This document shows, in pieces, positions 57,559-63,473 of a stretch of DNA of 64,000 nt; the stretch's first letter is position 1, and each line of letters starts with the position of its first letter. The DNA is taken from IMG/VR virus record IMGVR_UViG_3300011008_000021, positions 1-64,000 of that record; one strand, 5' to 3'. The notes below the pieces were generated by a model, which was given only the letters and a program-made list of their open reading frames with translations, was not told the DNA's origin and did no database searches. The stretch comes from a virus. Its lineage: Duplodnaviria > Caudoviricetes. The translations under genes and the position numbers were made by a program.

Positions 57559-60500
57559 TCAGTCAGTAATCTCACCTGCTACAATAAGGTCTGAATTCAG
57601 AACCTTAAGATCGTACAGAGTTGACCAACCTTGTGATGTACCACCATCAGCATACTGAAGAAGCTGAGTAGGAACAATAGGCATGTAAGGTGCATACACA
57701 GCAACTGAACTCATTAAGTCGTCACCGTTAACACCAACTAAATATCTGTTTGCAGCAATTGCTGGTGAAACAAAGACCTTTAACCCATTGAGGGTACCTG
57801 CAAAATATGGACCGTTGATTGATCCAGTAGGAGCTGCGTTCCATCCATCAATAAATGTAAGGATAGGAATAATATTAGATGCAACTACCATATAGTTAGG
57901 AGCAACATTAATCTTTAATATGATTCGCTACATCATATTGGGAATTTTTATTCCCCACTTATTTTCATAAGTGATGAGACTATATCTTCATCTTTTCGGA
58001 TGTGACTTACTTCCACTTCGCTTGAAGTGTACTCCCTTTCGGGATAGTCGTTGGGGCTGAATCCCATTAGGATTCCTGCCTGCTGATTATCCAATCCTAC
58101 AACTTTTTAAACCATCATATATTCATTACTGATATATTGTGGTATGTAGGCTCTAAGGATTTTCCAGCATATCAAGTCATTTATTATTCAAACATGTTTC
58201 CATGTAAGCGAGACTTGTTTACCTAATTGTAAACTTGATTTATCAATATATTTGTTATATATTATGCTGCTAATAATAAATCAGTTAATCTCTTTGTCTT
58301 ATCGTAGATAAGTTGTCTTGCAATCTCAACTATCTCAGTAAATCCTGCATAGTGATCTCTCTTGCTAACACCAACAGGAAGTGTCTTGCTCCATGCAAGT
58401 GCGGTCTGTGCAGTTCCTGCTGTTTCATCAAGTAACTGAACTACTTCTGTATCAATTTCATATGAAAGCTGTCCAACTGCCTTCTCAGCTAACTGATCTC
58501 CAAGATCAAATCCATAATCAGTCTTAGCTTGGAATGCTGCCATTTGGCTTGCGTATCTTACGTTTATATCGTTTCCATATAAACTCTATATATTACTACA
58601 TAGGCGGGACTATATCATATTCTTAATTTCTTTTACCAAAACTAAGAATCCATGCACTTCGATTCCACTTAGAATCTACTCTACTTTCTTGTTCACTTAT
58701 GTCTTTCTCATAAGATATGATTTCGATAGTCTCTGAACTTTACTTTCATAATAGAAAGTCTTAGCTGCTGATTGTCCTATTAGCATGGCAATTCTAATAG
58801 GAGTTTCCAGCAATTCACATGGTTTTTCATAATTTATTTCATTAAACTCAATTTGGATAAATCACTTCATAATTTAAATTATTAAGAGTTGCATAATTTC
58901 TTTTTTGAACATCCCTTTTTGTCCAAACATCTATAATCATATTAGACCAATCTGTATTATCTTTCTTTAACTGCTCTAATAATTTTAAATCGTCTGAATT
59001 ATTTTCATCAAATGGATGTCCACCATGGGATGGGTGATAATTAACTTCTATAAATTTATCTTCTGACTTAATATAAAAATCACAATCAAAAGGGTATCTC
59101 TCATCAGAATATTGTCTAACAATATCTGACTCATCATACATTTCTAATAAACACTTGTATAATTCTTCTTCAGGTTTTGACTTATTAAAAGAATTATTCT
59201 TTTTCATTGTTTCAAAATGCTGATTCCAAATATCCTTATTCTTTAAAGGATTTGTTACACCATAATTCTTTAACAATGTCTTTGTATATTTATCTCTACT
59301 TTCAGGAACTAAATTAGGTGATTTTTGACCATATCTTTCCAACATAGTATTTTCATATTTCTGTTGAGCTTCTTCGGTCTTTTTAGAATCACTTATTTTC
59401 TTCCTTATCTCTGGACTTTGATTGTGTTCTTTATAACCATATCTTTCTAAACTTGTTTGTTGTGCTTTTTCATAATTATTATAATTAGCATCTCCATATC
59501 TATCAAGCTTAGTTTGTTTTACCTTTTCAACATTTGTTAAACTCTTTTTACCATATCGTTTCATCATGGTTGAATTACGAGCTTCTCTAAAATGTTTCTT
59601 TTGTTCATCGGTTAAATATCTTCTACCCATATTTACTCTCCTAATAGTAAAAATATATAAATGTAGTAATCTAAAGAATTTAGGACTTCTTTAAAAACAG
59701 TTTGCAACCTGCTGTCCTACATTATAATCATATTATAACACAATTATAATGATTTGTAAATTGAGATTTAATTTATAAAATTAAGCTACAGCTTTTAAGT
59801 CTTTATAGTAGACTGCGATTCTTCTGGCCTTTGCAATTAATGGAATGCTCTTCATTTCAGCCTTAAGCATTGGAAGATCATTTTGAGGAATTACAACATT
59901 ATCGTAAACATAAGCAACTTTAACAGTATCAGTAGCTCCAATAGCAGTACCAGTACCATTTGAAAGAGTTAATGTTTTTCCATCGGTTGCAACAGTAACT
60001 GATGCATCATCTGCAACAGGAACTGCAACTCCAGCAGATGTGGTTATAGAAGTAATTCTTGCTTTTGATGCTGTATCAGGTCCATTATAAACTGGGAACC
60101 AAGAAGCAGTAACAGCAGCATTGGCACCTGTGAATGATTCTACCACTCTTGCAGCAGTATAATTAGGATCAACATTTCCTAATTTAAATGGGCTGTTAAA
60201 GACATCGCCGTTAGTGGTTTCGCCCTTTGTAGACCCAGCCTGATATTCAATCAATCATGTTAATCATAAATATTCTTAATATATAACTTTATAATTTAAA
60301 TTATTTTCTTTAGCAACTCTTTGTTTTTCAACATCTCTCACTGTCCATGTTTGAATAGCATTTTGATAAAATTGAGATGTTTTAGCTTTTTCTTTCCACT
60401 CATTAAGTTGCTGAATACATTCTTCATCATCTGGATTAAATGGTTTACCACCATGTGTCCAATGAGCATTTAACTCTATAAATAAATCATCTTCTACAAT

Positions 60501-63473
60501 ATAGAAATCACAATAAAATGGATATCTATCCTTATCCTTGTAATTTCTTAATATTGTTTTATTAGAATAATCTTTTAATAATGATTCATATAATTCATTT
60601 TCAGGCTTAGATGTATTAAAAGAATTATTCTTTTTTCTTGTCAAATACTGTTTATTAGTTTTAATAATGAGTCTATCTTTAGGAAGGTGTTTACCTTTTA
60701 AAGAAATGGAATTAGATTCTCCAATTCTCCTTTTATGTTCCTCAGATAAGTGTTTGCCTTTATTATAACTCGTAGAACCATATCGTTCTATTCTTGTGTT
60801 ATTGGAATGTTCGGAATAACTTCTAACACGCTTATCCGTATCCTTGGTTAAACCTTTATTCCAAACACTGATCTCATTAGTAGAATATCTTTCTTTAAGT
60901 GTTTTACTTATTTTTTCTTTTACTTCTTTTGAAACAGATTTACCTTTATTTGAAGGACTTCTACCAATACGTTTTTTTCTGTTTTCTTCCTTGTGTTTTT
61001 CAGAAACACCTTTTATCCACCCTTCATTTAGATATCTCTGTAATTCATTTGGATAAATTCTTTTTTCCAAATCATCCTTATGAATAACTATTCTACCTTT
61101 TTGAGTATTTGAACATTTTTCTGATTTATTCATTTGTTGAATTCTCCATAAAGAATATATAATTTAAAATTATTACATTATAAGTTATGGCTTATAATGT
61201 TTGAGGTCATATATCAGTAATATCAAATTCTTAATATTACTATTAAGTTCAGACTATATCATATTCCTATATCGTGTTAACCTTTATAGGAATCCATGCA
61301 CTTCGGATATTCCATAATATCCTACTCTACTCACTTACCATATAAAGTATTTCTCTTTATAATCCGTTTTCGATAGTCGTTGAACCTTCCTATTGATTAA
61401 TCATATTATAATTAGTGAAATTCGTCAATAGGCTTGGCTTCTGATTGTCCTGCTGGCTAATACAGGATATTCCAGAAATTCACATGGTATTTTTTCATAT
61501 GCATTACTGCATACGCATACTGAATTTCAATATGTGACATATCCAGACATAGAACTCATCAATTATGTTACGAATATATCGTTTCCATATATTCTCATTA
61601 TATTACTATAATGTTCAGACTATATCATTATCCTATATTCTATTACCGTTTATAGGATACCACACATTTCGAAAATACTTATTTTCTACTCTACTCACTT
61701 ACCATATAAAGTATTTCTCTTTATAATCCGCTTTCGATAGTCGTTGAACCTTCTTCTTTTTAAAGAAGCTTGGCTGCTGATTGTCCTAAATACTATGTCA
61801 TATATATATAGGGTTTTCCAGCAATTAATGTGGTTTTACATATTGTTTAATTTATTTATCTATAATAAGTCCGTTTGGATATATAATTTTAAAATTTAAA
61901 TTATTGTTTCTAAAAGTTTGAAGTTTTTTTGGATCTATTTCGGTCCACCATTTATAGATATTCCAATATCTACTTCTTGGACCTTTCTGTTCAGCTTTAG
62001 ATCTAATTTGTTCTGCTTCTTTTATATGTTCTTCATTATTAGGATCAAAAGGTCTTCCATTATGTTCTATTGTTCCATTTACTTCAATAAATAAATCTTC
62101 TGAAGCAATATAGATATCACAATTATATGGATAACGAACATCTCTATATGGATGAATTACATCTTCTTCACCATATTCTTGTATCAACTCATTTATTAGA
62201 TCTTTTTCTACTTTTGATGAGTTGAAGCTACTATTTTTCTTTTTAGTAGAATATTCTTTTTGTTTTGCAAGTTCCCAATCTTTTACAAAACATTCATGTC
62301 CTTTTAGTTTATTGCTAGCAGACATCAAAGAAGCATTTGTTTCTTTAGTTAAGCCTTTATTCCAAGGTACATGACCCATCATGGATTGAGATTGCTTTAA
62401 TTTTCTCTCTTCACTTGCAGGTATTCCTTTATTCCAAGGTTCTTTTCCTTTTCGATAAAGACTTAATTTTTTAGAAATAGTTTCTAAACTATCATTTGTA
62501 TCCTTAGTTAACCCTTTGTTCCAAGAAACATAATTTCCTTTTTGTAATCTTGTTTCCTTTGTTGCTTGTCCATTAGCTTTAACTCTTTCATCTGTTTCAG
62601 CAGTTAAACCTTTATTCCAAGGATTAGATTTAAAGGTTCTTCCTGGATAAAAACCAAGCGGTATATCATCACCAGGTTTTAACTTGATAGTTCTAACTCC
62701 ATTAGTGAAAAATTTTATTTTATCCCCTTCATAAATATCTTCTATCAACTTAAATTTAAATTTCACAATAAATAAATTAATATATGTATCATTATATATT
62801 ACTACATAATGCCCCTGAGGTTAAGGGTGAACAATTACAAGATCGTTGGCAATTAAATTCGGAAGTGCGACATTTGTTAAATTTAAACAAAATTTCTTAA
62901 ACATTCCCATGTCTGCTCTCTGAGTAGCAGAAGAAGCATCAAATGCCTCGTTTAAGAAATCTTGAGTGTTCTTTAAGCAACGAGCCAGTGTAATTTTTCT
63001 ATTATTATCCATCTTTTCTCCAAGATGTGATTTTCCGTAGACTGACTCAGCAATTTGAATTCTCTTTTTATCAAATATGTTACGAATTAATCGTGTCCAT
63101 TAATTCTCTATATGTTTCCATATAGTTCAGACTATATCATATACCTCAATTGTTTTAACCTTTTAAGGTACCCCATCACTTCGAAAATACTATTTTCTAC
63201 TCTACTTTGTTATTCATATAAGTATTTCTCTTATATTATCATTTCGATAGTCGTTGAACCTTCCGTTCAAAGAACGGCTTGGCTGCTGATTATCCCTGGC
63301 TAAAGGATTTTCCAGCAATTCAATGGGTTTTATTAAACTAATGTTTATTTATTAATAACTAAATTTTTATATATTATTTCAAAATTTAAATTATTATCTC
63401 TAAATATTAGTTCCACATATTACTATGTGGAAGCTCAAAAAATTTAAGCTTCAACTAAATTCTGATTAGCCAT
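57559..63473 (-). CDS. major capsid protein (T4 gp23-like), 453 aa, six exons: 63473-63446, 63071-62824, 61559-61530, 60251-59805, 58549-58288, 57905-57559
   Basis: Exons sum to 1362 nt and join in one frame: LPNLIANDLVIVHP|MSSMSGYVTY|IEY, AKARRIAVYY|SQMAAF, LSYEIDTE, KR|FAPNYMV, VYAPYMP (gp23-like motifs). Confidence 0.92.
57906..58287 (-). mobile_element. group I intron 5 of the capsid gene (382 nt, no ORF)
   Basis: P1 GAGAU/GUCUC with U-G; core UGCUGGAAA, AAUCAGCAGG, CAACGACUA, AAGAUAUAGUCU; ends AUG (omega-G). Confidence 0.9.
58848..59630 (-). CDS. intron-encoded Vsr-like (EDxHD/PD-(D/E)XK) homing endonuclease with YG repeats
   Basis: Repeated T..E/KRYG units; SKPE..RYPFDCDFYI..FIEVNYHPSHG. 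Confidence 0.8.
   Translation of the reverse strand: MGRRYLTDEQKKHFREARNSTMMKRYGKKSLTNVEKVKQTKLDRYGDANYNNYEKAQQTSLERYGYKEHNQSPEIRKKISDSKKTEEAQQKYENTMLERYGQKSPNLVPESRDKYTKTLLKNYGVTNPLKNKDIWNQHFETMKKNNSFNKSKPEEELYKCLLEMYDESDIVRQYSDERYPFDCDFYIKSEDKFIEVNYHPSHGGHPFDENNSDDLKLLEQLKKDNTDWSNMIIDVWTKRDVQKRNYATLNNLNYEVIYPN
59732..59760 (-). promoter_or_regulatory. sigmaA-type promoter inside intron 4, upstream of the endonuclease ORF
   Basis: TTTACA, 17 nt, TGnTATAAT. Confidence 0.65.
60252..61529 (-). mobile_element. group I intron 3 of the capsid gene (1278 nt, ORF 3' of the core)
   Basis: P1 CAUAU/GUAUG; P4 covariant UUUCUG/CAGAAG; UUCAACGACUA; AUGAUAUAGUCU; ends UUG. Confidence 0.9.
60276..61133 (-). 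CDS. intron-encoded Vsr-like homing endonuclease with NUMOD3-like repeats
   Basis: NKGK..SEEHK repeats, WNKGLT; SKPE..RYPFYCDFYI..FIELNAHWTHG. Confidence 0.8.
   Translation of the reverse strand: MNKSEKCSNTQKGRIVIHKDDLEKRIYPNELQRYLNEGWIKGVSEKHKEENRKKRIGRSPSNKGKSVSKEVKEKISKTLKERYSTNEISVWNKGLTKDTDKRVRSYSEHSNNTRIERYGSTSYNKGKHLSEEHKRRIGESNSISLKGKHLPKDRLIIKTNKQYLTRKKNNSFNTSKPENELYESLLKDYSNKTILRNYKDKDRYPFYCDFYIVEDDLFIELNAHWTHGGKPFNPDDEECIQQLNEWKEKAKTSQFYQNAIQTWTVRDVEKQRVAKENNLNYKVIY
61560..62823 (-). mobile_element. group I intron 2 of the capsid gene (1264 nt, ORF 5' of the core)
   Basis: P1 CCCU/GGGG; AAUUGCUGGAAA, AAUCAGCAGCCAAG, UUCAACGACUA, AUGAUAUAGUCU; ends UUG. Confidence 0.9.
61852..62766 (-). 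CDS. intron-encoded Vsr-like homing endonuclease with WNKG repeats
   Basis: Four (P/S)WNKG(LT) repeats; SKVE..RYPYNCDIYI..FIEVNG...H. Confidence 0.8.
   Translation of the reverse strand: MKFKFKLIEDIYEGDKIKFFTNGVRTIKLKPGDDIPLGFYPGRTFKSNPWNKGLTAETDERVKANGQATKETRLQKGNYVSWNKGLTKDTNDSLETISKKLSLYRKGKEPWNKGIPASEERKLKQSQSMMGHVPWNKGLTKETNASLMSASNKLKGHECFVKDWELAKQKEYSTKKKNSSFNSSKVEKDLINELIQEYGEEDVIHPYRDVRYPYNCDIYIASEDLFIEVNGTIEHNGRPFDPNNEEHIKEAEQIRSKAEQKGPRSRYWNIYKWWTEIDPKKLQTFRNNNLNFKIIYPNGLIIDK
63072..63445 (-). mobile_element. group I intron 1 of the capsid gene (374 nt)
   Basis: P1 GAAGCUU/GAGCUUC with U-G; full P4/P7 core motifs; ends UUG. Confidence 0.9.
63345..63407 (-). pseudogene. 3'-terminal remnant of a deleted endonuclease ORF in intron 1
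   Basis: IFRDNNLNFEIIYKNLVINK* versus intron-2 ORF end TFRNNNLNFKIIYPNGLIIDK*. Confidence 0.75.

Follow-up and report, generated by a model that had tools for sequence, protein, structure and literature searches.

The terminal guanosine (ωG) is regarded as universal in group I introns, where it fills the pocket for the guanosine triphosphate (GTP) cofactor and is what defines the second step of catalysis. The subject of this report is intron 4 of the major capsid gene in a tailed-phage genome (Caudoviricetes), IMG/VR virus record IMGVR_UViG_3300011008_000021, of which bases 1-64000, called the window below, were analyzed; this intron appears to end in adenosine (ωA). In Tetrahymena introns engineered for altered G-site specificity, with the terminal G changed to A, ligation reportedly needed a compensating change of the guanosine-binding pair from G·C to A·U. 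The phage intron also ends in A, but its binding pair is still G·C.

There is a precedent for natural ωA in the hexacoral mitochondrial intron ND5-717, whose exons are perfectly ligated in vivo (PMC6545197, PMC8146996). Both ND5-717 and phage intron 4 are natural introns of essential genes with a terminal A; ligation has been seen for ND5-717 and is deduced for the phage intron. The likeness concerns the terminal A only, and no kinship in sequence is claimed. ND5-717 is an obligatory mitochondrial intron, inherited vertically and thought to need host factors (PMC3679873); it contains whole genes in P8, and is back-spliced in corallimorpharians, whereas the phage ωA introns are small, optional, endonuclease-borne and apparently horizontally spread, with ωG sisters at the same site. 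A literature search for other natural non-G terminal nucleotides returned only ND5-717, although the search was a weak one since the Greek letter omega is not searchable.

Intron 4 also resembles the subgroup IA2 introns of phages, such as those of Staphylococcus phage Twort, the Bacillus phages SPO1 and Bastille, and T4 (td, nrdB and sunY). It shares with them a full match to Rfam family RF00028, a P1 helix with a U·G pair, helices P3-P9, the GAUAUAGUC element, P7.1/P7.2, P9.0, P10 and a homing-endonuclease open reading frame (ORF), and over short lengths its sequence matches introns of Twort-like and Bastille-like phages at 83-100% identity. It differs from them in its terminal A rather than G, in its host, a major capsid gene with five introns, in its DUF7487 endonuclease, and in the position of the ORF between P1 and the core. 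Megablast and blastn searches against cultured phages gave short matches to conserved core elements only, with no annotated close relative.

The capsid gene is of the T4 gp23 type and runs on the minus strand from 63473 to 57559, interrupted by five group I introns that all match RF00028. The features that bear on the 3' splice site of intron 4 are as follows (a caret marks a splice site in the sequences below).

60251..59805, minus strand: exon 4, ending GCA GUC UAC UAU (…AVYY), placed by tblastn of the intronless homologue P0004.
58550..59804, minus strand: intron 4, 1255 nucleotides (nt), matching RF00028, with boundaries from protein homology and orthologues and an endonuclease ORF between P1 and the core.
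58550..58561, minus strand: the 12-nt 3' tail GUAAGAUACGCA, in which G58552-C58551 form the 3' strand of P9.0 and A58550 is terminal.
58549..58288, minus strand: exon 5, starting AGC CAA AUG (SQM...), placed by tblastn of P0004.

Intron 4 has the top RF00028 score of the five introns, 75.1 bits at 58870..58586 over the full model (1-253), against a gathering score of 50. The match ends at G58586, the end of P9, which is 36 nt short of A58550; P9.1 and the 12-nt tail follow. On the minus strand the intron begins ...GCA GUC UAC UAU^AAAGACUUAAAAGCUGUAGC... and ends ...GAUAUAGUCCCGCC-P9-AG-P9.1-GUAAGAUACGCA^AGC CAA AUG. Introns 1 and 2 share the P9, P9.1 and 12-nt tail arrangement, and their true 3' splice sites, known from protein homology, lie at the end of the tail. 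Because A58550 matches these tail ends in position, it is the terminal (ω) nucleotide of intron 4. The tail also aligns base for base with those of ωG introns, including GUAACAUAUUUG, GUAACAUAAUUG and GUAACAAUAAUG. A terminal guanosine is thus absent from intron 4, as it is from four related introns (L142, L166, L170 and L171, described below), and the placement of A58550 as ω rests on this alignment together with P9.0, P10 and the protein junction. Since intron 4 and exon 5 both begin with A, sliding both splice sites by one base would leave the mRNA unchanged, and the terminal base would still be A.

The protein junction was examined by comparison with homologues. The reference for exon placement, P0004, is an intronless 458-residue protein of family PF07068 that is 79% identical in exon 4. 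The sequence [YF][YF]S[QN], mostly with YY, spans the junction in 116 of the 117 homologues that carry the junction motif, none of which has Ala or Ser in place of the second aromatic residue, and the same holds for every one of the 22 intronless loci matched in viral contigs. Furthermore, contigs of close intronless relatives from public DNA runs match the window exactly up to 59805 and then continue into exon 5 after no more than TCA or TCACAG (Ser or Ser-Gln codons), as in GTC TAC TAT^TCA CAA ATG. The exact alignment to this point shows that the inserted element starts directly after U59805. The serine codon at the start of exon 5 is AGC in the intron-bearing allele of the window, as P10 requires. 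The start of exon 5 reads AGC CAA in the window and AGU CAG in L142, and such purely synonymous third-position differences are expected if the sequence is translated. Only a junction after the terminal A yields an intact capsid protein in all five ωA phages. Taken together, the comparisons argue that the 3' splice site of intron 4 follows A58550, and we infer with a probability of roughly 0.8 that the exons are ligated there. No RNA run among the public sequencing runs matched the locus, the only matches being DNA contig runs that contained small fractions of the query; contigs from four of the DNA runs contained pieces of other introns and intronless relatives, and none from the window's own intron that spans 58550.

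The predicted structure of intron 4 is that of a canonical group I ribozyme, with P3-P9 above the RF00028 threshold and with P9.0 and P10 flanking the 3' splice site.

59805..59808, minus strand: exon strand of P1, CUAU, pairing with GUAG at 59789..59786, with U59805·G59789 as the U·G pair at the 5' site.
59786..59792, minus strand: internal guide GCU-GUAG, with GCU (59792..59790) as the P10 guide and GUAG (59789..59786) as the P1 guide.
58586..58870, minus strand: ribozyme core (P2/P3 to P9), the Rfam RF00028 match.
58727..58733, minus strand: P7 5' strand GAGACUA, with G58731 as the guanosine-binding G and A58732 bulged.
58607..58612, minus strand: P7 3' strand UAGUCC, with C58608 pairing to G58731, in the conserved GAUAUAGUC element.
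58604..58605, minus strand: P9.0 5' strand GC, in J7/9 (CCGCC), pairing with G58552/C58551.
58586..58603, minus strand: P9 hairpin, a covarying helix at whose G58586 the Rfam alignment ends.
58562..58584, minus strand: P9.1 hairpin GUUUAUAU-GGAAACG-AUAUAAAC, a covarying helix common to many ωG introns.

The 5' splice site follows the U of a U·G wobble with the internal guide, and the pairing CUAU/GUAG recurs in all nine same-site introns tabulated. In P10, exon bases AGC (58549..58547) form three base pairs (bp) with the guide GCU. This pairing, which had been proposed as one line of evidence for the A junction, holds up well: guide and exon covary in the same-site relatives as GCU/AGC, ACU/AGU, GUU/AGC, AUU/AGU and AGA/UCU. 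The covariation claimed for P9.0 has likewise been sustained, and now extends further. In intron 4 the pairs are G58605-C58551 and C58604-G58552. A table was made of 26 introns of the same architecture from the window and related loci, comparing J7/9 positions 3-4 after GUC with the two bases before the terminal nucleotide, and P9.0 can pair in every one, with six pair types (AA/UU in 12, AU/AU in 8, UU/AA and GC/GC in 2 each, UA/UA and AG/CU in 1 each). The terminal base is G in 24 of them and A in just the two with GC/GC.

The helices of the core are supported by compensatory change. In an RNAalifold analysis of six same-site relatives, 41 of 65 pairs still pair despite changes on both sides, and 46 of 68 do so in a set that includes paralogues. 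The stretch from the P7 5' strand to the P3 3' strand contains two covarying hairpins (columns 136-156 and 175-192 of A2, the alignment of same-site relatives), which is the P7.1/P7.2 arrangement of subgroup IA. The guanosine-binding pair was read by analogy with Tetrahymena G264-C311 as G58731-C58608, next to the bulged A58732 and G58733-C58607, and is canonical, as had been predicted. Because P7 is invariant among the sequences compared, covariation cannot test this pair.

Further evidence for the terminal A comes from related introns, which were found through exon 4 gene-caller fragments that end in intron-derived residues and through homologues of the DUF7487 endonuclease. At the UAU^Ser site, four orthologous introns from samples other than that of the window also end in A, and five further same-site introns end in G.

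L142 (ωA): tail AUAAGAUAAGCA^AGU, guide ACU.
L166 (ωA): tail GUAAGAUAAGCA^AGC, guide GCU.
L170 (ωA): tail GUAAGAUAAGCA^AGU, guide ACU.
L171 (ωA): tail GUAAGAUAAGCA^AGC, guide GCU.
L169 (ωG): J7/9 CCACC, end ...UGUG^AGC, P9.0 AC/GU.
L168 (ωG): end ...AAACG^AGU, P9.0 unpaired.
L167 (ωG): J7/9 UGAUC, end ...AAAAUG^UCA, P7 strands different.
L172 (ωG): J7/9 CGAAC, end ...AAUAAUG^UCU, P9.0 half-paired.
L145 (ωG): J7/9 CGAUC, end ...AAAAUG^UCU.

All four ωA orthologues have CCGCC…GCA^ with P9.0 GC/GC before an AGY serine codon. The central proposal of the original prediction, that intron 4 ends in ωA after A58550, is therefore upheld by five orthologous introns that share the terminal A, the GC/GC P9.0 and an exon-matched P10, and the A looks like a genuine exception that has been maintained. 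The endonucleases of L142, L166, L170 and L171 are 81, 70, 67 and 64% identical to that of the window.

The ωG sisters resemble the ωA introns in the UAU^Ser site, the P1 pairing CUAU/GUAG and the P9/P9.1/tail architecture, and most carry the same endonuclease family. They differ in the terminal G and in P9.0, which is AC/GU or AU/AU (unpaired in L168 and half-paired in L172) and not GC/GC; their J7/9 reads CCACC, CCAAC, CGAUC, CGAAC or UGAUC, where the ωA introns have CCGCC. All except L167 share the P7 strands CAGAGACUA / UAGUCC with the ωA introns, so that the guanosine-binding pair is canonical and the same in both kinds. In a tree of the ribozyme core built after masking of the diagnostic bases, four of the five ωA introns form a group with 88/96 support and L166 falls in a polytomy, a result that is compatible with a single origin of the ωA introns but does not demonstrate one. 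An endonuclease tree was poorly resolved and gave no grouping of the ωA introns. Other searches for relatives were less productive. Viral-contig relatives of exon 4 included none with an intron at the UAU^Ser site; the exact pattern GATATAGTCCCGCC in viral contigs gave 113 stretches, none like intron 4 and most seemingly unrelated coding sequence; the exact pattern GATATAGTCCCGCCTAT in metagenome contigs gave 16 stretches with no intron of this kind; and a P9.1 pattern search yielded one useful ωG relative, L163.

Several considerations weigh against ligation after A58550. In the introns of Tetrahymena and T4 td, the second step suffers severely when the terminal G is changed to A, and the guanosine-binding pair of intron 4 is canonical and identical to that of the ωG sisters, with no visible change of the pocket that would favor A. 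Exon ligation after A is deduced from the need for an intact capsid protein, and the exon starts in the 26-intron table were set by eye and from protein homology. The reading frame is also less decisive than had been thought. The predicted junction YY^SQM is in frame and matches intronless homologues, but the further claim that only this junction keeps the frame does not stand, since the pairs U59805/G58586, U59805/G58541 and U59812/G58557 are also in frame and free of stops. These alternatives are ruled out by comparison with relatives and not by the frame. Every combination of a 5'-site U with a terminal G under which the frame stays open was enumerated, and four in the window deserve attention. 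The first shifts both sites 7 nt upstream, to U59812 and ωG58557 (GUAAG^AUACGCA...), and gives a protein of unchanged length reading ...IAVYASQM.... Its P1 would have 5 bp (GCAGU/GCUGU, with a U·G) compared with 4 bp for the proposed helix, which is a further point against the A junction, and in relatives a different, common intron is inserted at the position of U59812 (after GCN GU^, in L144 and L169). This junction would nevertheless put Ala where 116 of the 117 motif-bearing homologues have Tyr or Phe, and the seven nucleotides CUACUAU that it makes intronic match the intronless alleles up to 59805. It would also leave no P9.0 or P10 and cut the conserved 12-nt tail to 5 nt. In L142, L166, L170 and L171, whose tails read ...GAUAAGCA^, the equivalent junction meets an in-frame UAA within GAUAAGCA; in L142 and L166 the alternative P1 is disrupted as well. 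The chance that the upstream pair is correct seems slim.

The same UAA in the four orthologues closes junctions of the G58586 type. With the 5' site at U59805, a 3' site after G58586, the terminal G of the Rfam alignment, would add 12 residues (SLYGNDINVRYA), and one after G58541 would remove 3 residues (SQM); in the window both are in frame and stop-free. The former would make the covarying P9.1 hairpin and the tail coding, and in introns 1 and 2, too, the splice site is not at the corresponding G. No homologue examined has a G58586-type insertion or is without SQ[IML], and the synonymous difference between AGC CAA and AGU CAG in the window and L142 argues against deletion of SQM. These two options are even less probable than the upstream shift. 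The least probable of all is the alternative that the original prediction itself had named as able to refute it, a 5' site after U59807 with terminal G58552, which reads ...VYSSQM.... It leaves the protein length unchanged and the frame open in the window and L142, but no U·G-containing P1 can form, since there is no G to pair with U59807 and only 1 bp of P1 remains; G58552 is needed for P9.0; and Ser would replace a residue that is Tyr or Phe in all but one of the 117 motif-bearing homologues. A different kind of explanation is that a crippling mutation or a mistake in assembly produced the terminal A, intron 4 being unproductive and the record a defective genome. The record is indeed a metagenome assembly (100,764 bases, G+C about 28%, CheckV completeness estimate 66%), with no source-sample reads over 58550. 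A base-call error is excluded, however, because four diverged orthologues from other samples end in A. The five ωA introns, moreover, all have an endonuclease ORF called as an intact gene, the A is accompanied by compensatory changes in ribozyme helices and P10 between the window and L142, and the intron is better conserved than its flanking exons, as expected of an actively homing element. A defective intron thus seems as doubtful as the upstream shift.

The preferred reading is that intron 4, with its terminal A, belongs to a mobile, endonuclease-carrying lineage of subgroup-IA-type phage introns inserted between Tyr-Tyr and Ser codons. Given the canonical core and the G·C guanosine-binding pair, free GTP presumably serves in the first step, as is usual. 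P9.0 (two bp, GC/GC) and P10 (three bp) would then bracket and place the scissile phosphate for the second step, with the tethered A sitting in the G pocket with fewer contacts. Because of the fewer contacts, ligation would probably be slower than with G, and sufficient in vivo. The stronger P9.0 may partly offset the lost contacts of A, and the link between GC/GC and A suggests such compensation, although it rests on perhaps one evolutionary event. On balance, we lean toward the view that a mobile phage ribozyme lineage ligates after a terminal A with a canonical guanosine pocket, recognition of the 3' site having moved to the GC-strengthened P9.0 and P10. A host or phage protein helper for ligation is possible, and nothing in the analysis indicates one; slow ligation or a helper, as the original prediction had it, is speculation. 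Both hydrolysis at the 3' splice site and the production of full-length intron circles require ωG (PMC3679873), and one can speculate that the A reduces these reactions in a highly expressed late gene.

If this reading is correct, intron 4 would, as far as the literature search reaches, extend natural ωA beyond hexacoral mitochondria for the first time and be its first example in a small phage ribozyme amenable to bench work, with natural same-site ωG sisters as controls. At least five diverged phage ωA introns, each with an endonuclease ORF called intact, and P7 strands that match those of four of the five ωG sisters, would provide a ready comparison of how far P9.0 and P10 alone can carry the choice and docking of the 3' site, and would also address ligation rate, side reactions and protein dependence. 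The test should be simple, since the ribozyme portion spans roughly 300 nt and an ORF-less version occurs naturally (L143, with its 3' end off the contig). Pipelines and databases that expect a terminal G will misplace such junctions; here the Rfam alignment stopped early, at G58586.

The ORF of intron 4 was placed as follows.

58848..59630, minus strand: putative homing endonuclease of 260 residues, DUF7487 (Pfam PF24308, E 8.5e-13).

The PF24308 match scores 49.2 bits against a cut-off of 27, and other phages have DUF7487 homologues in their introns at this site. Over 1242 aligned positions, intron 4 and its L142 counterpart are 82% identical, compared with 63% for the flanking exon 4 DNA, and the higher conservation of the intron fits horizontal spread by homing. 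The sequence evidence thus points to a functional ribozyme that is spreading between phages. An ORF-less intron at the same site was seen in L143 (positions 891-1161), with the same guide GCU-GUAG and P7 5' strand, on a contig that stops before the 3' splice site. It retains an apparent remnant of the endonuclease gene's final codons (..AUUAUGAUUUAUCCAAAUAAG), which suggests gene loss by deletion.

A conserved leader precedes the endonuclease ORF in the window (59695-59735, minus strand), L142 (4500-4560), L166, L168 and L169, with the form UAUAAUGUAGGACAG...(variable hairpin)...GUCCUAA. Its outer stem GGAC/GUCC is retained and the inner part varies among relatives; the leader could combine a promoter with a structured element that controls translation. 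In introns 2 (61855-62820, minus strand) and 3 (60279-61163, minus strand) the ORFs have no Pfam match at E 0.01, and share a C-terminal ...NNLN[FY]K[IV]IY with the DUF7487 protein of intron 4. The ORF follows the core in intron 3 and precedes it in introns 2 and 4. Two database proteins from relatives, P0146 (a capsid-exon fragment, J6S67_19925) and P0265 (a DUF7487 endonuclease, J6S67_19920), are NCBI entries filed under a Methanobrevibacter sp. metagenome-assembled genome, which may reflect a phage contig binned with an archaeon or may be a hint of the host.

The remaining exons of the capsid gene were also placed with P0004.

63473..63446, minus strand: exon 1.
63071..62824, minus strand: exon 2.
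61559..61530, minus strand: exon 3, 30 nt.
57905..57559, minus strand: exon 6.

Joined at the five junctions, the six exons give a coding sequence of 1362 nt with one terminal stop and a protein of 453 residues that is collinear with P0004; residues 6-452 align with residues 3-457 of P0004 at 75% identity. The listed homologues of exon 4 carry PF07068, the family of T4 gp23-type capsid proteins, and in a tblastn search with exon 5 the best capsid proteins from cultured phages were only 32-38% identical. Exon 3, which encodes MSSMSGYVTY, sits between adjacent group I introns, and comparably short exons were seen in relatives: a 22-nt exon (GUUCUAUUCACAAAUGGCGGCU) lies between neighboring group I introns at about 5006-5027 of L144, and in L169, at about 1780-1800, apparently just 7 nt (AUACUAU) separate a GCN GU^ intron from a UAU^Ser intron.

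The capsid codons ...IAV^YY^SQ... form an intron hot spot (window 59805-59812, minus strand; L144 at 4558; L169). Many relatives have a different intron 7 nt upstream, their exon 4 fragments ending in RRIAV followed by EKYAA, ERYAA and similar residues, and the guide region GCUGUAG of the window is able to pair with the upstream site GCAGU too. The junction serine is encoded by AGC or AGU, which pair with the guide, in seven of ten same-site intron alleles and by UCU or UCA in L145, L167 and L172; intronless alleles mostly use UCN. The preference for AGC/AGU could be a P10 constraint or could arise by co-conversion of exon sequence during homing. Finally, called genes in L145, L146 and L171 match a database protein only with TAG read as Gln, so some relatives, including the ωA member L171, seem to use a recoded stop codon.

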